Shown: positions 15,204 to 57,942 of the stretch, in pieces
Position numbering within the stretch: the first letter of the stretch is position 1
How the letters are laid out: every line of letters begins with the position of its first letter
Assembly: GCA_022813865.1 (NCBI GenBank)
Contig: JALDZX010000008.1
Location: 434,001 to 498,000 of the forward strand
Source of the DNA: Xylographa opegraphella
Lineage: Eukaryota
Reading direction: 5' to 3'
DNA: 64,000 nt
The notes under the pieces: generated by a model
Database searches by the model: none
The model's input: only the letters and a program-made list of their open reading frames with translations
Told to the model about the DNA's origin: nothing
Position numbers and translations under genes: made by a program

Positions 15204-17523
15204 ATGTTGTGAGCGTTCTTTGACATCAACAGCGCCAATCACATCCTGGCAGTGCTGATTAGAAGTGGACAGCGTTTTACCACCACCGCCTCGATATCCT
15301 ATCAACCATGCATATACCACAACTACGACGGGTGGCTTGGCCATACCGATTATGGAGACAAATAATACCGTTAAACACCCATCAGGTCCAGAATATCAGC
15401 TTGCCGTAGGAGAGGGTAACCCCTGCACCACGCGCGCGCAAAATGATGACAAGTCCTGACATATTCTGCAAGGTACCTACGTCCTGCGAGACGATTTTCA
15501 CCTCGCTACTCCTCCTCCACATCCATCCGAGGCTCCTCCTCCGAACCTCAATCCTCTCGCAACCACACCGGCCCCGCCCACTGCCGGCATCAAGCTTTCG
15601 ATCGTCATCATCAGCCCCCGCAAAGTGACGCCCCAGCTATACAGCGTTAATATGAAAACAAGCGAACGCCCCAACTTGGCTACCTATAGTATCAAGGAAA
15701 GCGAGAAGGAATCAAGGGAATCACACGAGACTTCCGGCGATGAAGCGCACTTCCCCCCGTCGTCTACTGGGACATATGGTAAAGCTCCAGCTTTTGGAGC
15801 CGAGAACACCCTTTTGGCAACGATCACGGGCAAAGATGCCTTAAGAAGAAAGAAGCCGAAGAACAACATAATCAAAAGTAATTCGTCCTATGTGTCCCGG
15901 GTTATTCCGCATGAAGCCTTGGCAAAACGCTTGCAGGAGCGAAATCCGGAAGGTCTTTTTGCCTTTACAAATATCAACAGAGCGTTTCAATGGTTAGATC
16001 TTACCACTGACAACATGTTCAAGGTGAGCTCGTGGCAACCCTGATCAAACTCTGTCATCCGCTAACGCCTGAAAGGCTGAACATTTGACAAAAATATTGT
16101 TCACGAAAGCGCATGTGCTATGCCACGATGTAAATGACCTCACAAAGAGTACAAACCATCTAGACGTGATCATGGGCACCTCTACTGCAGATATTATATG
16201 GTATGAGCCGCACTCACAGAAATATGCCAGACTAAACAAGAATGTACTGTGGTTCCTGTTCCTAACCAGACCCGTGCTAAGGCTGTCAAGGGTGTGATCA
16301 ATGCGTCGCCGATATCTAACATACGATGGATACCGGGTTCAGAGAATCTATTTCTGGCCTCCCATACAGATGGAACGCTGTTGATATACGACAAGGAGCG
16401 AGAAGACGCCGCATTCGCACCCGAAGAAAATGGCACCTCGACGCCTGAAAAACACGGCGATGCTGGTGAAGTTCGTCATATTCACATAAACAAGTCTGTC
16501 AACTCGAAGAACCAGAAAAGCAATCCAGTTGCTTCCTGGAAGATTTCAAACCAAAGAATCAACGCCTTTGCTTTTTCGCCCGACAGTCGACATCTCGCGG
16601 TGGTGTCGGAAGATGGGTCATTGCGCGTTATTGACTATCTCAGAGAAGTGTAAGTAGAGTTCGGGTTTCCAGCTTTTCGCTTGTGCCTCCCATCTTGCTA
16701 ATCGCGCATAGGCTGGTGGATCTATACACAAGCTACTATGGTGGGCTCATGTGCGTCTGCTGGTCGCCCGATGGCAAGTATGTCCTGACTGGAGGTCAGG
16801 ATGATCTGGTGACGATCTGGTCGCTGGCTGAGCGACAGATTGTGGCCCGGTGCCCTGGGCATCATTCTTGGGTCACAGCGGTAGCATTTGACCCGTGGAG
16901 ATGCGATGAGCGGAATTATAGGTTTGGTAGCGTCGGCGAAGATTGTCGCTTGTTGCTCTGGGACTTCAACGTCGGAATGCTTCACCGACCGAAAGCTGTA
17001 TGTACCTTGCCTATCCAAGACGATTATCTGCGAACGAAGCTGAGATTCGTAGGCTTCCGTGCGCCAGAGAGGGAGCGTGTCGTCTCACCTGCCATTGACA
17101 CGCAATCGCACTGAAAGTCAAGTTACCGCACGCATACGGTCAAACTCTAGCCTCACCACGAACAGTGCAGAGGGAGAAGAAACAATCGAGCACGCTGTGG
17201 AGTCGAGGACAAGGACGGCGGAACTACCGCCTGTGATGGTAGGTATTTCCGTAACGCAGTGTTTGAGGACAGGCTTCACTGACGCTGGACGTAGTCGAAG
17301 TTAGTGGACCCAGATCCGTTGTCGTGGATAGGATTTGAGGAAGACTGCATTGTTACCTCGTGTGATGAAGGTACGTGGAGGCACCCATGGAATTGATTGG
17401 TTGCCACCCATGGGTTCATGCTCACTCAGGGGATCCGCAGGTCATATTAGAACGTGGGACCGTCCTCGGGAAGGGGTCAACAGCAGCCAGGTCACCCTGT
17501 CCGCTGTGGGAAGTAGTACCTAA
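15204..17523 (+). CDS. creC: WD40 catabolite repression protein CreC (WDR20-like), multi-exon
   Basis: A 5-nt first exon (ATGTT) splices to give [11 protein letters not shown]. Motifs [66 protein letters not shown]. Confidence 0.9.
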
Positions 17524-32949: not shown

Positions 32950-34365
32950 CTACCGATCCGTCGACACCTGATCGATATGTATAGTCTTGAGAATCGCCGG
33001 CTTCTCCTGCACGCGGACCGCAGCCTCTTCCCCGACCTCGAGGTCCTGAAAGTCCTTCGTGCCGAGGTGCAACTCCGACTGGTGGGCGCCGACGTTGGCG
33101 AACGCGAGCGTGTCGAGCTCGCGGTCCATTTCAACGTAGTCTTTGCGCGAGCGCGAGTGCAGGCCCTTGCTGTTCGCCGTCGTGAAGGCGTTGGTGTGTT
33201 GCGGGGAGGAGTCGTTGTAGGCGAAGAGGCGGGGGAGTACCGGGAGGCAGCAGACGACGAGGCCGCTGGAGATCTCGGCGGTGCTGGGAGTGAGGTTAGC
33301 GGGGGAAAGTGGGCGGAGAGGGGGTTAGGGGTGGGACCTACGCCCATAGAGATACTGGCAGTAGGGCGTTTGTGACGTCGGGATTTGGGACGCTTTGGAC
33401 GCTGTAGATCAGCCGCATGACGCTCGAGAGGCAGGCGCTGGAGTTTTTGTTAATGGCAGCAGTGCGAGGTAGCTCGGGAGCGAGACGTACAAGAGACCGG
33501 ACGCGAAGATCATCGATATCCCTATCTTCTTCTTGATTGGCGCCTGTAACTTCCAGATGAATATGATCGGCAAGGTAAGCATGAGAAAGTCGTCGAAAAC
33601 GTTAATCACCGAGGATGCAATGAAGGATCGTTCGGCATCATAGCAACTCCCTGGAATCGTAGGGTTCCAGATTTTCTGCCGTGGTATGCACGCGAATATG
33701 GTGAGGAACAGATAAATGGTGAAGAAGAGAATGTTCAGTGCGATGATCAGGTGGAAGATGTACCACCGACGACTTTTCTTGCTCGTGACAAATATTTGGA
33801 CGAGTTGTAACAGGATCGCAACCTTGGTAAACAGAATCGCGGGCATGTATACAATTTGCTGAATGTTGATCCACTGTTGCAATGTCAATATACGGGGGGC
33901 GCACTACAGTGGCTACACCAGTACCTCTGCGAAATGGGCAAATTGCTCTGGCAGCTCATCCCATAGATGGAGCCCGATTCCGAAGCGGAGCAATTGGAAA
34001 GCAATCGCGACGAGCACAATGAAGAAAAACTGTTGACATATCAGCAGTGCCAATAGAGTGTCAGTCGGTATCGACTCGTACCCATGCTAGGAGACATATA
34101 TCTGCAGGCACTGGTCAGACTCCGGGCCTTGGAATATATATCAAGCCGGTGGATACGTACAATCTACCAAAGTGAACGCTTTGATGAGGACCAATCTGAC
34201 GTACAGCCGCAACACGATCAGGACTGACGGGACGATCAGGCAGACCAGATTTCCAGCAACCCAGACTGTGCTGTATGGGTTCACCGGATTCACAGGATCT
34301 GCAGTCACGCCGGGTGGGGCGGGCAACACGCCCACTGGTGAGGGAGTCGGAGCAGCAGCTGACAT
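32950..34365 (-). CDS. PTH11-like (fungal rhodopsin-domain) integral membrane protein
   Basis: APPGVT N-terminus, LRLYVR, FGIGLHLWD, TKVAILLQ, CIPRQKIWNP, LPIIFIWKLQ...KK. Exon boundaries are approximate. Confidence 0.8.
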
Positions 34366-37138: not shown

Positions 37139-38335
37139 TCACCCTCCACGCACCCTTCCCATCTCCCTTCCCATGCGATAATGCCTCCCCACAACCGCAC
37201 TCAGCTCCACCTCGGCCTCAAACAAGACCACGACATCCGACCCCCCGAACTGGAAATATGCCAACTCCTCCCCCTTGCGCAACACGACCCCCACCTCCGC
37301 CGTCAGCACGACCGACGACACGACCGCCATCCCGACCGGCAACACAGCCACCAGCCCCCTCGCCGTCTCGAGCACCACGAGGCCCCTCGCCTGCACGAAC
37401 TGGTACCCGGTCTCGTTCGGCGCGTCGAACTCCCTGCGCTTGACGATCTTCTGCTTCGGCTGCTCCAGCACCTGAGCGGTCTGCTCGAGCGGCTCGTCCG
37501 CGCTGCCGATGTCGCGGACCTCGATCTGCGCGTAATGCTGCCCGAGGATGGCCCTTGCTTCCAGCACGCGCCCACCGAGCGGGGCGTGCACGCGGTGGTA
37601 ATCGTTGGTGCCGAGGTAGCCGTGGATCCAGGTGCCGCCCGCGAAGCGCTCCGAATAGGGGCTGTCGGCTAGCAGCTCGCTGATGCGCCACGTGAGGGTC
37701 TTGAGCGTGACGGTCGCGGTGGGGGAGATGGCGAACTGGCCGTTGTAGGTCCAGTCGGCGGGGCTGCTGATGGCGGCCGGGTGGTCGGCGATGGGGCGGT
37801 AGCCGGGCTTGACGTGGCGGGCGAAAAAGTCGTTGAAGGTGCGCCAGCCGCCGCGGGGCTCGAGGTAGTCGTTGAAGTGGAAGGTGGGCGTGCTCTTGAA
37901 CGTTTCGAGGGAGGTGGCCGTTAGCGATTCTGGCGTGTCCATGAAGGCGCCGATGGCGCGGCCGTAGCGAACGATCCAGGCCGAGAGCCAGGAGAGGGGG
38001 CCTGACGAGGAGGGAGTGATGGGGCTCTGGTAGGGGAGTGTGGACGGCTGGTCGAGAACGAAGTAGAATACACCGAATTGGTTAAAGATGTCTTGGGCCT
38101 GGACTCGTTCGCTGGGGATCCAGATCAGAAGCGAGTTGATGAAATCGAGGTAGTCCGTGAAAGACTGGATGTTGGAGAGCTCGTCCATGTTGTATGAACG
38201 GATGGTCTCGATGGCTTTCTCGAAATCGACTCTTCGGTCGTTGTCTGACTGCACCCATTGCTGGAGCTCCTGGACGATGGCTTGATATTGAGGAGTCGCA
38301 GTGGGTCGCCTCGAGATCCAACTCCACAGCATCAT
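37139..38335 (-). CDS. Phosphatidylserine-decarboxylase-family pyruvoyl enzyme (substrate uncertain)
   Basis: TFNDFFAR, SPAD, DYHRVHAP and the autocleavage motif FQFGGS. No C2 domains or mitochondrial leader evident. Confidence 0.85.
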   Translation of the reverse strand: MMLWSWISRRPTATPQYQAIVQELQQWVQSDNDRRVDFEKAIETIRSYNMDELSNIQSFTDYLDFINSLLIWIPSERVQAQDIFNQFGVFYFVLDQPSTLPYQSPITPSSSGPLSWLSAWIVRYGRAIGAFMDTPESLTATSLETFKSTPTFHFNDYLEPRGGWRTFNDFFARHVKPGYRPIADHPAAISSPADWTYNGQFAISPTATVTLKTLTWRISELLADSPYSERFAGGTWIHGYLGTNDYHRVHAPLGGRVLEARAILGQHYAQIEVRDIGSADEPLEQTAQVLEQPKQKIVKRREFDAPNETGYQFVQARGLVVLETARGLVAVLPVGMAVVSSVVLTAEVGVVLRKGEELAYFQFGGSDVVVLFEAEVELSAVVGRHYRMGREMGRVRGG

Positions 38336-39012: not shown

Positions 39013-40281
39013 ATGCTGCAGTCGATGCAGTCAGATACGCGGTACTCTCTTGTCAGCTCAGATGATAATAACGAAATACCGATCGAAAAACCATCAGATG
39101 GTTTCCTCAAAGAGCTGAAAAACAAGATCAATAGACCCAAGCTTGTTTTCTGTGGTGTCACCTGCTTACTACTCGGCTTTGCGCTCGGTCTCCTAGCAGG
39201 CAGTTTTGACGTTCGTGCTTTCATTCGCAATACCCCTAGTGGAACTCTATCAGAATGTCTGAATCCCGCAAGTCGTCGCGAGTGGCGAAGCTTGAGTAAA
39301 GCCGAGAAGCACGATTATATCAATGCCGTCCAATGCCTGAGAACAACACCCTCACGCTTGGGCCTCAATCAATCACTTTATGATGATTTCCCATATGTCC
39401 ACAACAGCGTCGGGGGATACTGTACGTAGTTCACTTTATGAGCCACTCGACTCACACTAATACATACTCAAACCACAGCTCATGGTTCGGCCGCTTTTCT
39501 TGCTTGGCACAGATATTTCATACATACATATGAACAAGCACTCCGCGAGCAATGCCAGTATCAAGGTCATTTGGCGTATGTATATACCTATGATCCTTGG
39601 CGTCAGCTACTCACCGTGATACAGTTACTGGAATTGGGGTCTCGACTGGGAAGACGTGACACAGGCACCTGTGTGGGACTCCGAGACCGGCTTCGGTGGG
39701 AACGGCGACCCCAACGTTGGCGAGTCGATTGTGAAAGGTCACTGCGTCGTCGATGGTCCCTTCGCAATGCTCGAAGTTCTGTATCTTGACGACACACTCG
39801 AACCACATTGTCTGTCACGTGGATTCGAGAGCGACGTGGGTCTTGAGCGACAGGGTCAGCATATACGACCGGAAGCCTTAGAGAGGTTGCTGTTGCTCGA
39901 TGATTATGATGCTTTCAACATAGGATTGGAAGATTCCGCGCATATAGCGATCCCACGGACCATTCGCGGAGATTTCTCGCTGTTCACTGCCCCATATGGT
40001 ACGAATCCCTTCTTTTCATCTGCACTGACAATTAGAGTCAAGCTAAGGTCCAACCAGATCCGGTATTCTTCCTGCATCATACACAGTTGGACCGGCTATG
40101 GTGGACATGGCAGCGTAGAGACCCGCAAAAGCGGATATGGCAGTATAATGGTGTGACAGCTCATGGCTCGAAAGAACCAGCATCACTAGAAGATAAGATC
40201 TTGATGGGAGGATTGGCGCCGGACATTGAAGTGTCCGAGATTATACTTACAGAGTCGGATTTGATGTGTTATTGGTATTGA
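39013..40281 (+). CDS. Tyrosinase-family di-copper protein with N-terminal TM anchor (3 introns)
   Basis: RREWRSLS. Spliced CuA HNSVGGYSHGSAAFLAWHR, YWNW, and CuB region AHIAIP...DPVFFLHHTQLDRLWWTWQ. TM segment LVFCGVTCLLLGFALGLLAG. Confidence 0.9.
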
Positions 40282-42080: not shown

Positions 42081-42556
42081 ATGCAATATTTCAATTTCTT
42101 TCTTGTTACCTTTCTGGGCTATGCCGCATGCGCCCCGATAAGTATGTTGCGCGTGGTAACCCACGTAAACCATTCAGCTGATTGACGGCAGTCTTATCCG
42201 ATATGGCGCCTGACTATAAGCGAGAGATGACTGCAGATTACGAGGTCGCTCCGGACTATAAAAGGGATATGGCTGCAGACTACAAGAGGGAGATCACTGC
42301 GGACTACGAGGTTGCTCCGGACTATAAGAGAGATATGGCCGCCGACTATAAGAGGGAGATCACTGCGGATTACGAGGTTGCTCCGGACTATAAGAGAGAT
42401 ATGGCCGCCGATTACAAGCGAGAGATCACTGCTGACTACGAGGTCGCTCCGGACTATAAAAGGGATACGGGTGCAGAATACAAGAGGGAGATCACTGCGG
42501 ACTACGAGGTTGAGCCGGATTACAAGAGAGACATGGCTGCCGACTACAAGAAATAA
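42081..42556 (+). CDS. Kex2-processed repeat protein (KEP), a candidate RiPP precursor of 141 aa (intron 42142-42191)
   Basis: Exon 1 encodes the signal peptide MQYFNFFLVTFLGYAACAPI. A GTATGT...CAG intron joins it in frame to ILSDMAPDYKR and then alternating EITADYEVAPDY-KR / DMAADY-KR repeats. Ten KR sites plus a terminal KK. Confidence 0.9.
42200..42553 (+). repeat. Coding tandem repeat, 66-bp unit x5 plus a partial unit
   Basis: 22-aa unit DMAADYKREITADYEVAPDYKR with mostly synonymous differences between copies. Confidence 0.95.
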
Positions 42557-43954: not shown

Positions 43955-46038
43955 ATGGATACGACCTTCAGCGACAGTGTAAGTCTGTTCCTCATATCGT
44001 CAGAGCTCCTGCTACGTCAGGGAGTTTTTACTCTGATGCCCCAATACTATTTAGCTAATATCTCTGGCAACTGTAGAGTCTTCATGAACTTGAAAATGAG
44101 CTTCACACCGAGGTCGTACCTGGCACGGAGATCATGACCGATGTTGGATCACATCACTTCATCAAAAGCAAAGGCAATGCCACTGTCCTTGTTCCGCAAC
44201 CGTCGCAGGATCCTCACGATCCGCTGGTAAGTGACTATTAACTCTTGCATACACATCATAACTACTATATCATTTGGATAGAAGAAGTGGTCTGTATAGC
44301 TGATAATATTCTGCCTACAGAATTGGAGCCCAATATGGAAGTTCTCAGCAATGGCATCTACCTCGCTGGCAACGTTCATGTTGATACTCTCACCACTAGC
44401 CATCGCACCCATTTTCCCAGACCTCATTATGGACTTCAACTCCGATTTGGCTGGCGTAGTACAATTTACGGGAACAACCATTCTTGTTCTGGGATTTGCA
44501 AACTTCTTATGGTCAGCCACATCCTGCTCCAAGCTCTCTCCTGCAATCAAGGAGCGTCCAGATACTGATTTGTTACTGTAGGATCCCTTTAAGTGACGTA
44601 TATGGAAGAAGATTCGTTCTACTGGCGTCGCTTCTGGTCCTGATAGCAAGCCACATCTGGCGTGCTGAAGCCGGATCGTACTCAAGTTTCATGGGCGCCG
44701 CAGCTATCGCGGGAATTGGTGGTGCTCCTGGAGAGGTAATTCGATTGCGCACAAGGACCGGGGAGTCTCCGACTGACAACAAAATATAGGCTCTACAACC
44801 AATAATTACCACAGATGTTATGTTTTTGCATGAAAGAGGACTCTACACGACATGGTACTTTTCGATACTCTATGGCTCTACTATGGTATTGATTTTCAAC
44901 TATCGTTCTTGGATGCTGTGCTGACTCTTTTCAGCTTGGTCCAATTATCCAAGGAAGTATGGCTCAAGCATATGGATGGCGAAGCTTTTGGTGGCTCAAT
45001 ACGGGACTATGTGCCCTCGCCTTTGTCTTTGTTCTTGTGGGCTTTCCAGAGACGAAACATGTCCGTGTCTATCCAAGCGAGGCACAGAATGGTGCTCCAG
45101 CGTTTGTGACTACCGAGAAAACAGATGCGATATCCCACAAATCTGGGTCATCCGCCGTCGCAACGAGTAATGCAACACCAGTTCCAGCCTCCAATGCGCC
45201 GGATGATTCCCATCTCGGTAAAGGCAGGCCAAGTAGGAGTCAATGGAGGCTTCTGCAACCGGAGAGTCACCCTTTACGACCACTCGCCTTTGGTCTCTAC
45301 CTCCCGTTCAAGTTGTTCTGCTTCCCAATCGTCGTTTTCGCCACCTTTATAGTCAGCTTCAGCAGTACCTGTTATCTGATGATCACGTTTATCCAATCTC
45401 AAGCCTTCGCCGTCCCTCCGTACAGCTTCAACCAGGAATTCATCGGATTTATGAACTTCGCCTCCCTCATTGGTGCCCTGATCGGTCTGTTCACTGCTGG
45501 CCCCCTGAGCGATTGGGTTAGCGCCAAGCTGACCCGACGAAACAATGGCATCCGAGAGCCGGAAATGAGACTTCCAACTATGATACCTTATGTCATAATC
45601 ATGCTTCTCGGAAACTTTGTTGTAGCATTTGGTTTGCAGAACGATTGGGACTGGAGGGTGAGTTCATTTATTACCCCATTCCAATGTCCGGTAACGAAAA
45701 GCTTCTGACTCCATATGTCGCAGGCCATCGTCGTCGTAGGTTTTGGCTGCGCCGGTATTCAAATCGCGTCACTACCAGCTATCGCCTCCACATACGCAAT
45801 CGACTCCTACAAGCCGGCTGCGGGTAGTATTTTCATCGCCATCACTATCAACAAGAACCTGTACGGCTACGGGGTTTCGAAGTTCATCACCCCGTGGGTG
45901 ATACAGTCAGGCTACGTGCCTCCGTTCATGACGAACATGTGTCTGTTATTCCTGTGGGTATGCTGCGGCGCCATCTTCTGGGTCTGGGGCAAACGTTTCA
46001 GGACGTGGACTGCGAAGAGCAGTATCCATCGCCAATAG
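43955..46038 (+). CDS. MFS transporter (HOL1-like), multi-exon
   Basis: VVPGTEIM, LVPQPSQDPHDPL-NWS, YGRR, GWRSFWW...FPET, NGIREPEMRLP. Confidence 0.87.
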
Positions 46039-46516
46039 ATAGATAGCATTGATGTTTGGTCGCGGTGATGTAAACCGCTGTGATACCGACGTAGGCATAG
46101 TACGAACGCGTAGCCGACAGCCTCGCATGGATGATATCATACTGCATGCTTTGGTGCTGATCTGATGCGAGCAACCATCCCGAAGGATTTTCGGTTCCTT
46201 GTCCCGTGCATTGGTGCCTTCGGAGCCCCACGCATCGCAAAGGGCCGTAGATGTGGTGATCTGCCACGAGGCAATTGGCATCCCCCTGTCCGCTCTCTCC
46301 CCATCTCCCACCTCGACGCAAGAAAAACATGTGCCCCGCACGCAAAATAGCTATTTAAGCATTTTCCGGCGGGACATCAAACCGCCTCTCTTCCATCACG
46401 CCTGCCCCTTCAGACACGGTGGAGGAGAGCCCGAAGCCCACTTCTACGCAGTGATCCGATAGACCTTGGAATTTCCCCAAGCCCCGTTCGCTGCTCTACT
46501 CGGCTCCGTCCCCGCA

Positions 46517-48015
46517 ATGGCCTCCTCGCAGCACCCCGCAAGCGGCGGCACCCTTCTCAGCCAGCTCTCGGCCGTGGAGATTCCGTCGGGGGAGACGCTG
46601 GATGAGCGTACACGCAGGGAGGCGTTGGCGGTTGCGAAGGGCATCGTCGACGCGCTGGAGAAGCCGGAGGAGGTGGTGATGCGGTATGCCAACGAGGTGA
46701 GGGCCCGTCCGTTCCGCTACGCTTCCCTCCCTCTGCCGAAGGTTTGGATCTCTCTCGCGACCCACACGGTGCTGAATATAGGCTACTCTGCAGATAATGG
46801 CGCACCGCGTCAGCCTGCGGGTCGGGGTCGAGCTCGGGCTGTTCCGCATGCTGGTGCAGCGGGGCGTGACGCCGCTGTCGGCGAAAAGGATGGCGGAGCA
46901 GACGGGTGCGGAGCTGTTGCTTGTTGGTGAGTGGGTGAGAGAGTGTGTGTGGGGGGCAGACGTGGCATGAAGGGAAGGGGAGACCGATGTGCTGATGCTG
47001 CGGGGTGGTTTTTTTAGTGAGGATCATGCGCGTTGTGTGCGTTATTGGCTTTGCGAAGGAGGTGGGCGTGCAGAGCTATGTGGCCACGCGGCTGACGAAG
47101 GCGATCACGTCGCCGGCGATGGAGGGTGCGATGATGATTTGGTAAGGAGGTGCTCTTTCGGGGCGGATGGTGGATGGGTGCTGATCGAGCGCGGTAGCCA
47201 CGACTATTCCTCTACGTGGCAGCTGCCGCAGTACTTCCAGGCCCATGGCTATACGTGTCCGACCGACAGTTCGGACTGCCCGTTCCAGTGGGCATTCAAA
47301 ACGAAGCAGACGTATTTCGAGCGCATCCACGAGAGCCCGGAGGCGATGAAGGCGTTCAACAATTTCATGAAGGAGATTCGCAGCACGCGGAAGTTCTGGG
47401 CCGATTGGTATCCCGTGGAGGAGGAGATAATCAGTGGGTTTGCGGGCGGGCCGGAGGATGTGCTTCTCGTGGATGTTGGGGGTGGGAACGGGCATGATTT
47501 GGAGTCCTTTCTTGCTTCTTTCCCGCAGGCCAAGGGCCATCTCGTTTTGCAAGACTTGCCGGGGACGATTGAGAACCTCAAGCCCAAAGATGGGATTCGA
47601 GCCATGGCTCACGACTTTTTCACTCCGCAGCCTGTCAAAGGTGAGCAGGTCGTTATGGTGCTATTCGTCGAGATATGCTGACTGTTGGGCAGGCGCCCGT
47701 GCCTACTACACCCATTTCGTGCTGCACGACTGGCCCGACGAGAAGTGCCGGGTGATTCTGCGCGAGCTGATGGCCGCCATGAAACCGGGATACTCGAAGC
47801 TCGTCCTCAATGAGAGTGTGCTTCCGGATATCGACTGCTCGCCGTGGTTCGCGACCAACGATATCAACATGATGGCCATCCTTGCCGGCATGACGCGCAG
47901 CCAGTCACAGTACGTGGAGCTGGTCGAGTCGGTCGGCCTCGAAGTGGTGAAGGTCTGGCGATCGCCGGATGCGGAGGATGCGGAGGGGGTGATTGTAGCG
48001 GTCTTGAAAGCGTAG
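46517..48015 (+). CDS. SAM-dependent O-methyltransferase (methyltransf_2 type with winged-helix N-terminus), multi-exon
   Basis: LLVDVGGGNGHDL, LQDLP, HDFFTPQP, YYTHFVLHDWPD. Confidence 0.92.
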
Positions 48016-48109
48016 GATAATCAAACCCTAGAGTCACGAGATGTTTCGGCGCGTATATACTTCCTGAGTCCGAGTTACAATTTTTTTCGTGGTTGAATTC
48101 ACCGGGCTT

Positions 48110-48844
48110 TCATTCGTCAAACTTTATCAGCAACCAGACATACTTCTGCCCATTCTCCCCCCCGCCCTTGCCGAAATCAAAGATCTCGCTCCCAATCTCC
48201 TGCATCCCGGCTTTGAGATACGTCCTTAGGCCCATCGGCGTTGCGATCGTCCACACCCCCTTGATTCTGCCCGGCCGGGCCTTCGCATCCACCTTCGCTT
48301 GCTCAATCCCCCACCGCACGAGCATGCTCCCCAGTCCGCGCTGCTGAAACTCCGGCAGCGTAGCCAGGGCATCCAGATACCAGTAATGGGAATCACGGTC
48401 ACCGCCCATAAGCGCCTCAGACCACCCCCCCACCAGGGTATCATGCAACCTCCTCATCAGCACGCGCGCATCCCGGTTCTCCACTGGCGCGTCCTCGATC
48501 GCAGGCACCATAGGCCGCGACTCCAGAGCCGGTTTCGTCGCGTTAGCCGCGGGCGCGCACCAGCAGGCCACGGCGACGACTTGAGCGGCGGAGCCGTCCG
48601 CGGGCCGGTAGACGACTTTGCGCCAGTGCCGGTCGGCGTTGCTATCGCCCCGGCCTTCCAGCGCGTTGCTCATCCGCATCCGCTTCCAGGCGCGGGCGAC
48701 GGCGCGTGTTTCGGCAGTTGTGAGCGGCGCGGAGGCGGCTTGGCTGATGGGGTTGCTGGCGAAGGCCCGCTCTTCGATGTCGAGCATGGCGTCGACGTCT
48801 GCGAGGGACATGGGCTGGATCTCGAAGGGCGGTGGGGACACCAT
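48110..48844 (-). CDS. GNAT-family acetyltransferase
   Basis: WYLDALATLPEFQQRGLGSMLVRWG (motif A, QxxGxG) and ATPMGLRTY. Confidence 0.85.
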   Translation of the reverse strand: MVSPPPFEIQPMSLADVDAMLDIEERAFASNPISQAASAPLTTAETRAVARAWKRMRMSNALEGRGDSNADRHWRKVVYRPADGSAAQVVAVACWCAPAANATKPALESRPMVPAIEDAPVENRDARVLMRRLHDTLVGGWSEALMGGDRDSHYWYLDALATLPEFQQRGLGSMLVRWGIEQAKVDAKARPGRIKGVWTIATPMGLRTYLKAGMQEIGSEIFDFGKGGGENGQKYVWLLIKFDE

Positions 48845-49352
48845 GGCGGTGTACTCGATGCGGGTGTGCAGATGGGTGGAGTTAGTGTACTCGCTTGGGA
48901 GTGGATTGAAGTAGAAAGCGACTGAAGCTTTGGCTCGTGTGCTTTTTTGGCCCACTTCCACAGCGCAGTTCGCGCTAGAGTCGCGCTAGGGTTAGGGCCT
49001 GTGCGGCGGTTAAGCCTCAAGCGCAGCGCCGACGACTAGCGACAATAGCCGCCTTGACCTGCGCACACTGATGTGATACTAGAGACGAAATAAGCATCGG
49101 ATTTCAATCGTTCGTACTAGGTGTCATAGACGTGGAACTATTTTTGTCTTTCCAGCTCATAATATTCACAAGGCGAATTTTGATGAATGAAAAGTCGGCG
49201 TGACCGGCTGAGTTTGAAGTGAGTTCAGTATCCACGATATGTACCTATGTGCCAAGGACCTCAGCCTTCGCCACCTCGAGCCATTGTCTCGAAACCGGCA
49301 CCTCCACGTCCCACTCCAACCCTCCTGCCTTCCCACCCCCCATTCTCATACC

Positions 49353-51464
49353 CTACGCATCCGTATACTTCATCAACCCCACCTCTAGCGCCTTGATCTG
49401 CAACGCCAACAACCGCGAATAGTAGCGGCACAGAGCCAAGTTCCCGCCGAAGAACCAGAAACCTTCATGCCCACTTCTCCTCCAGATTGTCCGCAATTCG
49501 CCTTCCTGATCATAGCCCCATACATCACCCACCTGATCTGCCACCTTATCCCCAAATATCTTCCGTGCGGTCTCCCGCATATTCTGATACCCAGTCGCAA
49601 ACACGATCTCATCCGCTTCGATTTCCTCCCCGTCCGCGAACGTCATGCTGTGCTCGTTTACGTGCGAGATCTCTTGCCCTTGTTTGACTCTGATTTTGCC
49701 ATCTGCGATCAGCTGCGATGCTCCAACGTCAATATAGTAGCCGCCTCCACGATGCATATACTTCATCCAGAGGCCCGCGCCATCGGGGCCATTATCGAGT
49801 GCGAACCCTGCAGCCTGCAGGCCCTGCAGGAGGGTTGCGTCGCGGCGGGTCGTTTCGCGTGTGGCGTCGATGTGGAAGCGCTTGAGAACGGGACTGGGAA
49901 GGGAGTGGCTGATGAGATCTGCGTCCTCAACGGGAGGACCGCCTTCGCAGTAGACACCTGCCATCGTGACGTCAATGAGCGCGCGGCTGGTTACCACGAG
50001 GGTACTGCTGCGCTGCACCATCGTGACCGCATAGCCGTGCTCGAGATAGTCCTGTGCAATGTCATGTGCGGAGTTGCAGCTACCGACTATGATGGCTTTT
50101 TTCCCGGCGCCCGCGGATTGAGGGCCGACGAATTGCGAAGAATGAACGAGAGGGCCATGGAAGGAGGAGAGGCCGGGGATGGTGGACGGGAAATTCGCTT
50201 CGCCGCTGGCACCAGTGGCTTGGATTATATGACGTGGGTGGAATGTCCCTATCTGAGGTCAGTGGGAAGCAAGCGGATGATGGTGATATACGTACGGATT
50301 GACTTCTTTCCATCCATGTCTCGCGTAAGCGTTACGGTCCAGTGCTTGGCTTTCTCATTCCATATTGCTTCTGTGAGTGTGGTGGAATTCCACACGTTGA
50401 GCTCCATGGCCTTGACGTATATCTCAAACCACTCTGCAAGTTTGTCCTTCGGAGTGAATACCTGGATGAATTAGTATCAGGACGTCTATGAATGGAGAGC
50501 CCGGAGAACTTACAGGCCAGTTCGGTGGGAAGTCTAAATATGGCATGTTGTCATACCTTTGAGACTCGTTCAGTATTCTGTAGTGCTATGGATTGGGGCC
50601 GCAGATCTTGAGCTTACCACACCGCATCATGGAGAACCAGCTGGTGATATCTATTGCGCCAATTGTCTCCGACATGAGGGTTTTGATCGACCATGAGAGT
50701 TACAATGCCTAACTGCTTCAACCGTGCAGCTGCTGTCAAGCCCCCTTGGCCAGAGCCTTCAGCGTGAAACGTCAGCTCTGTGTCTCCTTCCCACAAATAA
50801 TGGAAGACTGACCGACAATGATTACCGAGGGCTCAAGCCCATCCTCAAAATTCACTTCGGCATCTCTTCGTTCTTTCCAATTCTTCCTTCCAGGATGCGA
50901 ACCATGAATGACACCCGTTGGTCTCCGTTCCTCAATGAATTCTTCATAACCTTTCAGTTCTTTCAGCGAGGTGAACAAAGTAAAAGCTTTCCATTTGCCC
51001 CCGTCGTCTGGATCTTGGACAAGCCTGACCAGACCCCTGCCTCTGCCAACGTCAGTTTCGACAGTGAGGAACGACTGGATGCCTTTCAGAGTTCCCCCAA
51101 AATCGACTGAGGCAACTGTAGGCTTTCCCACATAACTGGTCTGGTCAATAGCGAGAGAAGTAATTCGTGAACCCTTGCTCTGCGCTTTTAAGATAGATGA
51201 GATATTCTCCCGACCACTAAGGGTATGGAAGTCCCATGTCAGGCAAAGAAGATCCCTCCAGTATGATTCAGAAAGAAAGACCTTGGAGAGATCAGAAGCA
51301 CCACTTTGGAGATGGTCATTGGACAAAGAAAGCCATCCGGTGACTACAGATTCTGCGTCCAATTGAGATAAGTCCGTGGGCCTTGGGTAGAGCACTGGAT
51401 CAAGAGCGTGGGAGCCCGGTAACATGCGGTTTGACGATAGGACCTCCACTGCAGCCGTGGCCAT
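49353..51464 (-). CDS. Flavin-containing monooxygenase (class B, N-terminally extended type), multi-exon
   Basis: IVGSGQGGL FAD motif, GDNWRNRY...LHD, FHGPLVHSSQF, VGSCNSAHD, GGYYIDVG, FATGY. N-terminal YWRDLL domain. Confidence 0.9.
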
Positions 51465-52685
51465 GATGTAGACTCAGGACTGTATGGTAGCACGGCCAGT
51501 GAGCACTCCAGCGTGGCGTTGGTGAGTCCATTACTGAAATGTAGCGAGCGTGGCAGCCAGCGGAGCAATGACGAAATAAGGAAATCATCGCCTCGCCCTC
51601 ACAGAGCAGTTCGGAGGTAATCACGCATTGAATTATGCCGCGTCAACGGTTCTCACTTCCGTGGCGTGGGCCAGTCTCCTGGTCGAGCGGTTGTTGTGCC
51701 GTGCTGTGTATTACCCCACGGGATTGCCACAAAATGCCTTTATCCTAAAGCTACCTTAATCCTAGGTGCCGTGGGGGGCGGGACGGGAGTGTTTCCTAGC
51801 GCTTCGATAGTGTCAAGCCTGATCCGTGCATGGGACGATGACATCACTACGCTCGACCTCATCTCTCGACTTTCGGCCTTCAGCTGACAGTTTCGCCCCC
51901 ACTGGATCATCTGCCATTGCCTCAAGGATTTCAATCCTTCGCTGAAGCAGAACAAGGACCTCATAGGTCCGCATTCTAGTTCTGCAGCCATCCTTACTTT
52001 CATCGCCTCTCAGGATGACTGATGGATCCTCACACCATGACCATCACCGGGGCCACACTTTATTCAAGTATGCCTGCCCGTTGCAGTGTACGGGCATTTG
52101 ACTTGAGCTTGTTTGCTTTTATCGAACGAGTACCTGAGTGCTGGTCGTTGACGAGGACGAATAATTGCCATTGCGCCATACTTTAAACCTTGTTTACTCT
52201 CCTCGTCTAGACCCAACATACGAAGTATCGTCCAGCGTGTCGTACGACCGCTGTGCCACCTCAAGGCAGAGACGATCACTGCGGCCTCGTTACCATGCTC
52301 CTTCGCTCCTCCTCATGTAAGCCACTCGGCGTCATAGCCCTCTGAAAAGCCAGGATTCTGTTGGTTTTTGGGCAGTCCTTGAGCTGCGCGTGGTCGGAAC
52401 AGCAGGTCGCAGTTCTTTATCTGCTTGAAAGCTACCACACCACAGTAATAAACTGGCATCCCTTCGTGGCACAGCTGGTTACAGCTCTGGATTAACGCCA
52501 GTATGATTGACTGCCGGTACTACGATAATCGGAGCACTTCAATGGCCCACATAGAATTGTTCTGCGTTGCTGCATGCTTCCTTATTCTTCATTGTGAAAG
52601 ATCGCTTTGTTGCTAAGTTTTAGGGGCACTCGACAGTCTGTTTCTGTTTTCACGCAATCTCATTAAAGCGTCAACAAGTCTCAAC

Positions 52686-53989
52686 ATGGACAAAGGCCCT
52701 GTACCCTCCGATGGCGACGTGAGTATGCAAGCGGGTATTCTTGCTACCACCATCGTAGTCACTATTCTCGCAGATACCGTCGTTGCTCTTCGATTCGTGG
52801 TGCGAAAATGGATTGTAAAGAATATTGGCTGGGATGACTGGTGTATCCTTGGTGCAGTCATCGGCATCACAATAGGAATGGCCCTTGTCATCGTGCAAAT
52901 TTCTTATGGCTTTGGAAGACACAAATACTATCTTACACCGCACGAGCTGCAGGAGTTCCAGAAGTATTCATTTGGAGAATGGATACAGACATTTGCCACA
53001 CTGATGTGGACCAAGATCTCGATATGCTTGTTTCTTCTGCGGATTACCATCAGCAAAGCATTCATTCGTCCCCTCCAAGTTGCGATCATCATTCTAGTGC
53101 TAAGTAACGTTATTCTGACTGTCCTCTGGGCGGTTCAATGCAGTCCTGTTGCGCTGGCTTGGGATTTGACCCAGCAGGGCACTTGCTTCAGTGTGGCTCA
53201 GATAGACGATATTATTTTGGCTCAAGCTAGTAAAACAACACCTCTAAGCTGTGGGTACATTCAAGCTAACAATACCAAGTCATCTCGATCGTCTCAGACT
53301 TTTTCCTCGCCGCATTCCCTATTCTCATCCTTCGACACGTTCAAATCAATATACGGGTCAAAATCGGGCTGTGTCTACTCATGGGCATGGGAGTAATGTA
53401 AGTTGGACTCGATATACGATGGGTACTTACTCGTGACTGACTCATTCGAATAGTACTGGGTGTATCTGCATAGCTCGAGCTGTCCTTAACTGGCAAAATG
53501 ACTACAGCCAAGATCCGACCTGTAATCTGCTCCCCGACCCGCAACTATTTTCCCTCTTACTTCACCCACTAACCAATATCAGGGGTCAGTGTTCCAAATT
53601 GGTATCTACGGTCATGGGAAATCTGCGTTGGTATCATAGCCGCGTCCGTCCCTACGCTGCGTCCTGGCTACCTCTATATGCAAGACCGTCTCGTCGCCTC
53701 CTTCTCTTCCAAGGCCAGCTCTAGCGCTCCTTTTTCCAAGTCCAAAACACTTGTTCCGTCACCAGTAGCCCGCACGAAAGCCTCCAACCCCTTCAAGTCG
53801 TTTGGTACCAATACGTCGTCCACTACGGAGGGCAATTTCCTGCCGCTGCAAAACTTTGAGATTCGAAAGACTACAGACATTGATGTGGAAAAGAAATCGA
53901 ATTCGCGCAGTACCAGTGGGGCTTATAGACCACGGATTGGACGCACAGATTCAGAGGCGCATTTGAGGAGTGTAGAAGATATTGTTTAG
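52686..53989 (+). CDS. PTH11-like (fungal rhodopsin-domain) integral membrane protein
   Basis: LRFVVR...GWDDW, GFGRH, TKISICLFLLR, QCSPVALAWD, WEICVGIIAASVPTLRP. Confidence 0.85.
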
Positions 53990-54995
53990 GGCTTTCTGCG
54001 CGCTTTGCAGAATTTAGTTTTGGCCTACCAGGCGCCGCCTAGTGACTTTATTTTTTGAGGTAGATGTTCATATGGGATGTGTTCACTTGGAAGGAGCATA
54101 TGTCCCGTGCTATCATGCCATATTCCCACGAACACTGACACGATAACTTTCGCTTTTAATTTTTTTGCGCGATATCGATTATCCTACGCTGGCTGCAGTA
54201 GTGTCAATGGATAATATGTAGGTCAGCTTACCCAACTGACTCGGTCTATTGTTGTACTTGATAATGATCGTTCGTGATATAGATTATTGTTTTTTATATT
54301 CGTAGACTTGAGATTTTGCGATTTCAACGGTATTGATTTAGGGCCATGCACCGTGCGGGAGTGCTCCTAATCGGGAAGCTCGAGACTAGTGACAGGAGTA
54401 CTCCTTAACCCACCGCAGTGCATCAAGGTCAACCATGGAACTCGACTCTCCTCCAGCCAATGGACAAGATCAATGCACCTAAAATATTGCCTTTCTATGA
54501 ATGAGAACGATTCACAATGCTGTTGATCCAATGCCGAGTGAGGGCCTTGTATCACAGCAGAATTGTGCTCGGGGCTTGCAGCCTCATCCATTACTGACCA
54601 ACGGATAAAACATCCGCGTGCGAGAAAGAATGCTAAACAGTGGTATGATGCAATTCTCATCAGGATCATATCGTGCATCAAATCCTGTACCTCTGATTAT
54701 TACTTGCCGTACTTTGTGTCCTTCTGTTGTTACGCCACAGTATTCGAGACTTTCCCATCAAACCTAGCTAGTCTAGGAATTGCATCCTTCGCGCCTCTGA
54801 GTCAATGGCAGTGAGCTTATGCCGAAGACAATCACTGCCGATCACATACATCACACTCACTGGCGAATTAGCGTGCATTTCACCCCATCCTTGTGTAATT
54901 CAGGAACGATGTCATTGTTCCATTTCCCCATGCGTCCTGTTGCTTGAATTGCCATCTTCTCGGCCGTCCCTTCATCTCCTTGCTTGCATCTCACC

Positions 54996-56181
54996 ATGGC
55001 GTCTCATGTACCTCCTGGAAGCTTACGCCTACTTGACAAGGTCGCCATTGTAACTGGTGCTTCCTCTGGGCTCGGCCGTGCCATTTGCCTGGCGTTCGCA
55101 GCCCAGGGGACCCATCTCGTTGTATGTGCGGACTTGCGACCCACACCCCGAGGGGTATTTGGGGCCCAGGATGTGGAGGTCTCAACGCATGACCTGATCT
55201 GCCAGCGCCATGGCGAGAAGAAGGCTGTGTTTGTGAAGACGGACGTGACGGTTGCCGCGGAGGTGGAAGCGTTGGTACAGGAGGCAGTCAAGCTGGGGGG
55301 CAGATTGGATATGTGAGTTCTACTTATGCTCAACGATCGATAGGGACAGAGTTCCAGCGGCTTTTATATGCTCCACGATCTCTGGTGGTAGTAATGGCAA
55401 AATGGGTTGGGTATCATTCAGGCTGACCTTTCACTTGTTTTTAGTATGGTCAATAATGCCGGTACAGGCGGCACGGAAAGCGCTGGAAAAGTTCATGAGA
55501 TGAAAGACGAGACGTGGGACTTTGTCATGTAAGTGGTGATCCTTGCTCGCCAGTCCTCTAATACCCTGTATTCATCTCTCCGTACAAACTGCTGATATAT
55601 CAATGTTGCAGGAATATCAATAGCCGCAGCGTCTTCCTTGGCTGCAAGCACGCCGTCGGGCAGTTCCTCAAACAAGAACCACGTCCCAACAAGCATCGAG
55701 GATGGATAATCAATACAGCAAGCATGCTTGGCGTGGTAGGCTTGAAACCTGGTGCTTGTAAGTCGAGGAATGTCCTCTTTACATAAGTTGCATTGGCTAA
55801 AAAGATCCGATCCACATAGCCGCATACTGTGCATCGAAAGGAGCCGTGGTTCTGCTGACGAAGCAGATTGCAGTCGAATACGGCAAGGAGAAAATCCACT
55901 GCAACGCTTTGTGCCCGGGCTGTAAGTCAACTCTCAACCTTCCTCCGAGTCTGTATGCGGTCATCTGATAATCATGTTCACCGCCAGATCTCAAAACCCC
56001 CATGACAGAGCCTATCTACAACGATCCCCAAAATAGAGCCGACATCGAAGCCATGACGCCCTGGGGCGAATGGGGTAACGTGGAAGACGTGGCCGCCTGC
56101 GCCGTGTTTCTAGCCAGCGACGATGCGGCCTACGTGACTGGCGTGCCGCTGTTGATTGATGGAGGATATACTGCTCAGTAG
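54996..56181 (+). CDS. Short-chain dehydrogenase/reductase (multi-exon)
   Basis: VTGASSGLG, spliced VNNAG, INTAS, catalytic YCASK, NALCPG, IDGGY. Confidence 0.92.
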
Positions 56182-56786: not shown

Positions 56787-57942
56787 ATGGAAAGCCAAGA
56801 CGCGCTCGACGCCTCGCCATTCTGCAACCCCCCAACCAGTGATGGGGAAGCGCCAGATAAGGCATGCGAGCAGCAGCGCCTAACATTCGCCACCGAGTTC
56901 GTACACCGGCTGCAGCGCGACGGATACGTGAGACTGCGCGGCCACGGCATCAGCGCCACGCAGATCTCGGAGGTCTTCCAAGCCGTGAGTCCCTTTCACC
57001 CCCCCCCCCCCCACCAACTCGCCACGCAGCCAAACGAAGCCAACGAAAAAAAAAACCCCCCTACAGCACAAAACATTCTTCGACCTCCCCCTCTCGCGCA
57101 AGCGCGAACTGCTCCACCCCGGCGGCGCCCGCCCCGCCCGCGGCTTCACGCCCTCGCACACGGAGAAAACTTTCCTCCACCTCCCGCACCTCTCGCGCGC
57201 CGCCCCCGACGCCGCCGAGCCGCGCGAGCAGTTCACGCTCGGCCCACCCACGGACGACACCTACCCGACCCCCTGGTTCCCGGCCCCGCACCTCTCGCCC
57301 GAGCACGCCACCCTGCTCACCTTCTACGACGCCTGCCGCACCACCGCCCTCGCCCTGACGCAAGCCCTCGAGCTCGGCCTCGGCGTCCGCAGCGGCACGC
57401 TGACGACGCACTGCGCGCCCGACGCGTCGGAGCTGACGCTGAACTGGTACCCGGCCGCCGCGCACGCGGCGCTGCAAGGCCCGCGCCTGCAGCGCATCTG
57501 GCCGCACTCCGACCTCGGCATCGTGAGCCTGCTGTTCCAGGACGGCGTCGGCGGGCTCGAGTTCGAGGACCGCGCCCGCGGCGGCGGCGGCGGCGGCGGC
57601 GGCGGCTTCGTGCCCGTGCGGCCGAGCGCCGTGCCGGGCGAGCTGCTGCTCAATGCGGCGGATACGTTGGAGCGCTGGACGAACGGCATGGTGCCGGCGG
57701 GCGTGCATCGCGTCGCGGTGCCGGTGGCGATGAGGGGCGGCGGCGGCGGCGGTGCGGCCGAGGGGGAGATGGTGCCGGGGAGGCGCTCGGTCGTGCTGCT
57801 GTACCGCGCCAGGGGGGAGGCGTCGGTGGCGCCGTTGCCGGCGTTCGTGACGCCGGACGCGCCGGCCCGGTTCGGGGAGATGACGGCGACGGAGTACTTG
57901 AAGGTGAAGAATAAATTGACGTTCGGGGACGTTGTGGAGTGA
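56787..57942 (+). CDS. 2-oxoglutarate/Fe(II)-dependent oxygenase (IPNS/DIOX-like), one intron near 56985-57066
   Basis: GYVRLRGHGI, LNWYP, HSD (HxD), LLFQDGVGGLE, LERWTNG, HRV, RRS (RxS). Confidence 0.9.
57580..57606 (+). repeat. (GGC)9 microsatellite encoding poly-Gly inside the 2OG oxygenase
   Basis: Directly visible. A second, shorter Gly run lies near 57735-57752. Confidence 0.9.

Follow-up and report, generated by a model that had tools for sequence, protein, structure and literature searches.

The closest described counterparts of the system considered here are the fungal peptide pathways for ustiloxins and phomopsins, in which the tyrosinase, respectively UstQ or PhomQ, is described in earlier literature only as 'likely involved in cyclisation' (PMC6514808; PMC7329392). 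The former reports PhomQ to be essential for phomopsin production, and in an account of dikaritin clusters DUF3328, the UstYa domain, is the class-defining enzyme (PMC12048977). Here, we describe a tyrosinase-like gene at 39013-40281 on the plus strand of a 64,000-nucleotide stretch of Xylographa opegraphella DNA (NCBI GenBank assembly GCA_022813865.1, contig JALDZX010000008.1, positions 434,001 to 498,000), hereafter the window, whose coordinates are used throughout. Its product bears a proline in place of one of the six histidines that bind the copper pair, and a gene for a Tyr-rich, Kex2-type precursor lies close by. We assign the gene to the PhomQ-type family as a new member, one whose setting is unusual in lacking UstYa.

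The gene and its product

The gene comprises four exons, separated by introns of 57, 49 and 59 nt that are each bounded by GT-AG, and specifies a short product of 367 aa. When this spliced product is compared with the 366-aa homologue P0008, all three junctions align gap-free, and a tblastx comparison with the metagenome locus L006 matched all four exons with their order kept. Its features, including the ligand histidines of the first (CuA; HA1 to HA3) and second (CuB; HB1 to HB3) copper sites, are as follows.

39013..39421, plus: exon 1, with the N-terminus (predicted cytosolic), the membrane helix and the start of the catalytic domain, including HA1 (H130, 39400-39402)
39142..39207, plus: predicted single transmembrane helix, residues 44-65, from hydropathy (mean Kyte-Doolittle 2.49)
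39479..39575, plus: exon 2, with HA2 (H138, 39481-39483) and HA3 (H147, 39508-39510) within SHGSAAFLAWHR; PF00264 at 39.4 bits
39625..39998, plus: exon 3, with the PHCLSRGF loop and the first CuB helix
39941..39955, plus: first CuB motif H-I-A-I-P, with HB1 (H275) and P279 at the HB2 position
40058..40281, plus: exon 4, with DPVFFLHH (H300 and H301, 40075-40080), the C-terminal CYWY and the stop codon

The tyrosinase domain PF00264 is recovered above its 22.6-bit cut-off in exon 2 and in exon 4 (28.7 bits), with exon 3 below it (17.7 bits), and it is present in 76 of the 77 homologues that were found with exon 3. The original prediction, made from the letters of this DNA, had read three CuA histidines, an intact FFLHH and no C-terminal shielding domain, and the gene model agrees on each point: H130, H138 and H147 are present with a spacing of 8 and 9 residues, which we take to match the spacing in the Aspergillus oryzae catechol oxidase AoCO4; H300 and H301 are both in place; and the protein ends 66 residues past H301, leaving no C-terminal lid domain. 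At CuB, the codons CAT ATA GCG ATC CCA give H-I-A-I-P, such that HB1 (H275) and HB3 (H301) are retained and the HB2 position is Pro279, which places the protein outside the six-histidine definition of a tyrosinase.

The C-terminal CYWY (40267-40278) belongs to a near-invariant C-Y-x-Y signature, at which the protein always terminates in relatives with either proline or histidine at HB2 (hereafter the Pro and His groups): its Cys is kept in 146/152 of the former and 93/96 of the latter, and both Tyr in at least 94/96.

A conserved proline in the second copper site

HMMER alignments to hemocyanins placed the retained histidine differently from domain to domain, and we relied instead on a gapless alignment within the family. 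Members with the canonical motif (HAPIH, HNTLH, HNPLH and HGSLH, including P0049, P0058, P0059 and the UstQ-type proteins) align to HIAIP without a gap, and after the motif HxxxH and HxxxP members share the stretch GDF...DPxFxxHH. Pro279 therefore occupies the position of the second CuB histidine, which together with the codons bears out the predicted His-to-Pro change.

Relatives were first collected by a word-index search with exon 3, which gave 77 matches, the best of them being a protein of the lichen fungus Lasallia pustulata with 69% identity; HB2 is Pro in 72 of these, His in three and Ser in two. A profile built from 24 clean full-length relatives was then run against 1.84 billion representative proteins, of which 12,868 matched at E <= 1e-3 and 1,129 at E <= 1e-30. 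After two further searches, 378 relatives had been gathered, a sample that leans to the clade of the query, so that its counts speak of fixation and not of frequency: HB2 is Pro in 239, His in 117, Ser in 13 and another residue in five, with four unaligned. The other five ligand histidines are kept at 94-99% in the Pro group, as the following counts of proteins retaining each histidine show.

HA1: Pro group 202/207; His group 101/103
HA2: Pro group 196/208; His group 109/110
HA3: Pro group 205/207; His group 111/111
HB1: Pro group 232/238; His group 116/117
First H of HH: Pro group 180/184; His group 110/113
HB3: Pro group 182/184; His group 113/113

Judged by these alignments, HxxxP arose long ago and has been conserved across a large family of enzymes, and the fixation of one residue (239 Pro as against 18 other non-His) points to a selected geometry over decay. 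In a scan of metagenome contigs, too, where 80 loci were kept and 75 align at CuB, 13 loci have HxxxP alongside 54 with HxxxH and eight with other forms. The original prediction had asked whether the proline might reflect a sequencing error or a loss of function private to this genome, as would be suggested if close orthologues all retained HxxxH. That notion draws on the departure from the textbook motif only, whereas the recurrence of Pro in 72/77, 239/378 and 13/75 of the three samples, an intact frame, the presence of all other ligands, and the two base changes that separate CCA from any His codon rule it out for practical purposes, and we give it hardly any weight; the proline is a feature of the clade.

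We also looked for a residue that might take over as ligand. The invariant histidine of the PHCLSRGF loop was considered as such and dismissed, being found in both groups (Pro 117/122, His 63/76), and a column-by-column comparison of the Pro and His groups found no ligand-type residue fixed only in the former: the most divergent columns have Phe for Met in GDF, Ala for Ser and Arg for Gly, none of them ligand types. The first histidine of FFLHH, raised in the original prediction as a possible substitute, is equally kept in both groups, and conservation therefore gives no hint of a new role for H300. In exon 2, a histidine five residues past HA3 (H152, 39523-39525, in WHRYFIH) occurs in 160/197 of the Pro group and 33/103 of the His group; P0007 and P0008, the nearest relatives, have Gln instead.

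These comparisons bear on the idea that the five-histidine site has ceased to be a two-copper oxidase and now belongs to a one-metal or non-redox enzyme, or to a scaffold, like the hemocyanin-like cyclopenase AsqI of Aspergillus nidulans. The lack of a newly fixed ligand-type residue in the Pro group and the sharing of the PHC-loop histidine by both groups are what this idea would lead one to expect, and AsqI, itself the product of a fungal gene cluster, likewise combines a type-3 copper fold with a non-canonical B site, which reads His/Leu/Tyr and is metal-free, with zinc at site A (PMC6053404). However, AsqI belongs to a different branch within the superfamily, and two of the three B-site ligands are gone from it, mutation of the remaining histidine having had no effect (PMC6053404), whereas in the window protein only HB2 is replaced and, in the Pro group as a whole, HB1 and HB3 show the same strict conservation as the CuA ligands. 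Since the proline itself is also fixed, we regard a degraded site of this sort as quite improbable.

PhomQ-type and UstQ-type proteins

The original prediction further asked whether HxxxP marks the clade associated with Kex2-processed peptides (KEP). This holds for the phomopsin enzymes: P0384 and P0077, the UniProt entries for PhomQ1 and PhomQ1', both read HNAIP at CuB. It fails for the UstQ side. P0344, which is UV8b_06024 of Ustilaginoidea virens and is listed as ustQ adjoining ustYb, ustYa and ustA in a 2025 paper (PMC12028740), has HGSLH, and among the proteins of Aspergillus section Flavi around P0334 (A. parasiticus, labelled 'Tyrosinase ustQ'), three of four cluster-mates have HNPLH or a near form, the assignment here being by label only.

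Phylogenetic trees, from every one of which the HB2 column was excluded, agree with this division. FastTree analyses, restricted to rows with 90% or more of the core columns, require four changes between Pro and His on 123 rows and again four on 249 rows, and a quick IQ-TREE tree of 134 rows (thinned from 225 to below 62% identity) requires two. In the latter, the window protein and PhomQ1' fall in a 60-row all-Pro set with a Shimodaira-Hasegawa-like approximate likelihood ratio test (SH-aLRT) value of 96, and the two UstQ-labelled proteins in a separate 5-row all-His set with a value of 98. With quick, unrooted trees computed without bootstrap, one or two origins of the proline are both possible. 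On the evidence of motif and tree, HxxxP separates PhomQ-type from UstQ-type proteins and is no marker of all peptide-linked tyrosinases. The UniProt wording, 'tyrosinase-like' for PhomQ and 'tyrosinase' for UstQ, may mirror this difference in the site.

PhomQ1 and PhomQ1' of the Diaporthe leptostromiformis phomopsin cluster are thus the nearest characterised relatives in kind: like the window protein, they have HxxxP, the other five histidines, an anchor near residues 43-54 and no C-terminal domain, belong to the same all-Pro clade, and are encoded beside a Kex2-type repeat precursor. They differ in sequence (about 41% identity over exon 3), and the phomopsin cluster has UstYa-type genes and a precursor with Tyr at the first core position (PMC7329392), unlike the window, which lacks UstYa and has Tyr at the unit end. 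UstQ (P0344 and, from section Flavi, P0334) shares the short fold, the N-terminal anchor, the PHC loop, the C-terminal CYxY and the link to a peptide pathway, but has the canonical HxxxH (HGSLH, HNPLH), falls in the separate all-His clade, and works with UstYa and UstYb (PMC6514808).

Membrane anchor and fold

The single N-terminal transmembrane segment of the original prediction was recovered at residues 44-65 by hydropathy, and a corresponding helix is seen in the AlphaFold model of the homologue P0008. The hydrophobic segment begins only at residue 44, after a charged N-terminus, unlike the cleavable signal of secreted polyphenol oxidases (PPO), and the excess of Lys and Arg N-terminal of the helix would favour a type II orientation. 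Among full-length proteins, 74/96 of the Pro group have an internal hydrophobic segment as against 9/55 of the His group, of which 28/55 have signal-peptide-like N-termini, the dominant kind in the all-His outgroup. The anchor was considered as a Pro-specific trait, and this was dismissed: 11 UstQ-type HxxxH proteins also have the internal segment, which makes the anchor a property of the broader UstQ-plus-PhomQ group.

In the model of P0008 (61-65% identical to the window protein; mean predicted local distance difference test, pLDDT, 85.5), residues 33-62 form one helix and 261-280 another, which spans H273 and P277 in P0008 numbering. Foldseek gave this model a probability of 1.00 of matching 6z1s (E 1.8e-18) and 4j3p (E 1.7e-17), its best structural matches, with a TM-score of about 0.68. 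Judged on the P0008 model, and not on the window protein itself, the fold would be the four-helix bundle of type-3 copper proteins. The two matched structures, AoCO4 (4j3p) and a Thermothelomyces PPO (6z1s), resemble the window protein in having conserved cysteines and no C-terminal domain, but are soluble secreted proteins with six histidines in contrast to its five histidines and membrane anchor. The PHC loop and the C-terminus each hold near-invariant Cys. By analogy with the homology model of MtPPO7, which was built on the AoCO4 crystal structure and has three conserved disulfides (PMC5424327), these cysteines fit disulfide pairs, though the pairing is itself drawn from the analogy, and such pairs would suit a lumenal or extracellular domain.

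The Tyr-rich precursor and a second instance of the pairing

As the original prediction had noted, a Tyr-rich precursor is encoded 1.8 kb downstream of the tyrosinase-like gene on the same strand. It occupies 42081-42556.

42081..42141, plus: precursor exon 1, with the signal-peptide-like MQYFNFFLVTFLGYAACAPI, followed by a phase-1 intron
42192..42556, plus: precursor exon 2, with ten KR sites and a terminal KK

The second exon is composed of units that each end in KR, namely DMAADY, which occurs four times, together with EITADYEVAPDY and variants, and its DNA repeats with a 66-nt period over 5.3 copies. Every one of the 16 Tyr of the precursor follows Asp or Glu, and 11 stand immediately before a dibasic site. 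The gene thus combines a signal peptide with repeated, KR-flanked cores, as dikaritin precursors do.

L006, the closest relative among the metagenome loci (54%), has HIAVP at CuB and, about 1 kb downstream of its tyrosinase gene on the same strand, a precursor with a signal-peptide exon and, at the position that corresponds to the one in the window gene, a phase-1 intron. This precursor contains eight AVVDxDGGDVY-RR units and a final DPGY, with Tyr directly before the dibasic site, and no UstYa was found in the 5.3 kb of flank that accompanies the pair. L006 is a second, independent case of the tyrosinase-then-precursor pairing.

In a further metagenome locus, L015 (13228-13962, plus strand), a canonical HxxxH tyrosinase-like gene (PHLGGH) is followed 2.4 kb downstream on the same strand by an open reading frame (ORF) in which five or more units of 23 residues each close with RR (QRLGDGILHNGELGSLCSALNRR), a possible repeat precursor.

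Neighbouring genes and the absence of UstYa

The other genes of the neighbourhood are as follows.

37142..38335, minus: PsiD-like gene of the phosphatidylserine (PS)-decarboxylase family (PF02666, 5.3e-43), single exon, divergent from the tyrosinase-like gene
Within 44300-50258, plus: MFS transporter, downstream of the precursor; in all, two MFS genes lie around the tyrosinase-precursor pair
46971..48012, plus: O-methyltransferase, the same accessory gene being found beside the HxxxP tyrosinases of L001, L004 and L007
48113-48985, minus: GNAT acetyltransferase
49356-50258, minus: flavin monooxygenase (FMO)
54948-55313: SDR
56989-57939: 2OG-Fe(II) oxygenase
33412-33903 (minus) and 52617-53393 (plus): genes with the Fung_rhodopsin domain (PF20684)

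The block of MFS, O-methyltransferase, GNAT and FMO genes at 44300-50258, with the SDR and the 2OG-Fe(II) oxygenase beyond it, may form one biosynthetic cluster, and the PsiD-like gene and the O-methyltransferase are possibly part of the cluster of the tyrosinase.

This setting raises the alternative that the enzyme oxidises free Tyr or another phenol in a small-molecule pathway together with the PsiD-like decarboxylase, GNAT, O-methyltransferase, FMO and MFS proteins, the precursor being unrelated to it. The PsiD-like gene is separated from the tyrosinase-like gene by 0.7 kb, upstream of it and on the opposite strand. Among solved structures, the best relatives of its product, which has an FGGS motif near its C-terminus, are two of the L-tryptophan decarboxylase PsiD (8zia and 8x4q, E about 2e-12), with true PS decarboxylases only slightly behind. 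Pyruvoyl decarboxylases require a free alpha-amine, and the C-terminal Tyr of a peptide has none to offer to such an enzyme. Against this stand the repetition of the tyrosinase-then-precursor order in L006, the predicted lumenal location of the catalytic domain when the other enzymes lack an anchor, and the absence of any PS-decarboxylase-family gene seen in the seven other HxxxP loci that were scanned, among the ORFs taken there. Moreover, PhomQ, from the same clade, has its role in a peptide pathway (PMC6514808). On balance, we consider a pathway confined to small molecules unlikely.

UstYa was sought in several ways. Stop-to-stop ORFs of at least 75 aa were scanned for PF11807 (UstYa/DUF3328) across the window, 257 of 320 being covered, a figure that counts four pieces of tyrosinase exons, with the remaining 63 overlapping or antisense, and none matched; tblastn with five UstYa fragments against the window gave nothing at E <= 0.01; and the HxxHC motif occurs three times in the window, in no plausible ORF. 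The window thus lacks the DUF3328/UstYa gene by which a dikaritin cluster is defined, an absence that covers these 64 kb, a copy elsewhere in the genome being possible.

Flanks of 4.7 kb or more accompany eight HxxxP metagenome loci (L001, L003, L004, L006, L007, L009, L012 and L020). Their Pfam scans took 138/142 and 120/167 ORFs, with overlapping or antisense ones dropped by eye, and the tblastn search for UstYa took the whole loci. UstYa is present in four of the eight, viz., L001, L004 and L007 with two copies each, and L012, and such loci often also have an O-methyltransferase and a Fung_rhodopsin gene. L003, L009 and L020 have neither UstYa nor a precursor in their flanks, and with three of eight loci in this state HxxxP does not serve as a mark of linkage to a precursor. 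The lichen 'Clan R1' clusters, as outlined in PMC12048977, comprise a tyrosinase, two UstY genes and an O-methyltransferase, which is the gene set of L001, L004 and L007; compared by cluster description only, the window resembles them in its O-methyltransferase and Fung_rhodopsin-domain genes, but lacks the class-defining UstY genes.

Two further observations were made on these flanks. Fung_rhodopsin genes occur within 10 kb of an HxxxP tyrosinase in the window, L004 (5439-5831), L007 (634-975) and L012 (3576-3965). In L007, a low-complexity ORF of four-residue FDRK/LDRK units (16274-16480, plus strand; possibly coding) lies 5 kb downstream of the HxxxP tyrosinase.

A proposed role in peptide oxidation

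Taking these lines of evidence together, we favour the interpretation that the gene encodes a lumen-facing peptidyl-tyrosine oxidase with a working but altered copper site, which acts on the products of the neighbouring precursor; we put the probability of this at about 0.55. The protein, which is of the PhomQ type, is held in the membrane by one N-terminal helix and is without a lid domain, would have the short tyrosinase/catechol-oxidase fold, and its disulfide-bearing catalytic domain would probably face the lumen of the secretory pathway. The replacement of His by Pro at HB2 occurred deep in the family and has since been retained. The metal site is most likely still in use, because the other five ligand histidines are almost invariant, with CuB presumably resting on two histidines only (H275 and H301). 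The most likely task of such an enzyme would be the oxidation, by ortho-hydroxylation or quinone formation, of peptide-bound Tyr on the Kex2-processed products, which after trimming of KR would end in Asp-Tyr, and this oxidation would proceed without a UstYa partner.

Several points weigh against this interpretation. No UstYa gene was detected in the window, and both characterised tyrosinase-dependent pathways need UstYa-type partners (PMC6514808). Among the eight HxxxP loci with flanks, only L006 pairs the enzyme with a convincing precursor. A survey of such precursors, in the portion bearing on this question, saw no enrichment of tyrosinases near those without DUF3328 (PMC7329392), which counsels caution over a single adjacency, one that L006 strengthens. 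Small-molecule chemistry would suit the PsiD-like decarboxylase, GNAT, O-methyltransferase and FMO encoded in the flanks equally well, and AsqI is a precedent for one-metal, non-redox catalysis by a type-3 fold whose B site has degraded (PMC6053404).

Beyond the favoured interpretation, we tentatively suggest, as a possibility on which we would not insist, that lichen-type fungi have a minimal UstYa-free peptide pathway, in which the five-histidine anchored enzyme, its site shaped by the fixed proline and its CuB bound by two histidines only, would directly oxidise the C-terminal Asp-Tyr of peptides that Kex2 releases from the neighbouring precursor, and the freed coordination position would admit the peptide Tyr or the adjacent carboxylate to the copper. 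The original prediction had raised the idea of a site that may be more open and suited to peptidyl-Tyr.

The comparison has a more general bearing on the family. The two model enzymes of these pathways differ at the metal site, with UstQ having six histidines and PhomQ five and a proline, and the five-histidine form constitutes a large conserved branch. In the open full-text literature, to which the search was directed and which does not take in subscription phomopsin papers, we found no discussion of the family-wide five-histidine site or of the contrast with UstQ. The window and L006, by pairing the enzyme with a precursor and no nearby UstYa, offer a simpler system for studying the effect of the tyrosinase itself on the peptide, and they bear also on whether two histidines at CuB suffice for a working type-3 copper site. 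If the UstYa-free pathway were to prove true, the PhomQ-type branch, with more than 200 sequences sampled, would represent a distinct and so far undescribed class of peptidyl-tyrosine oxidases.

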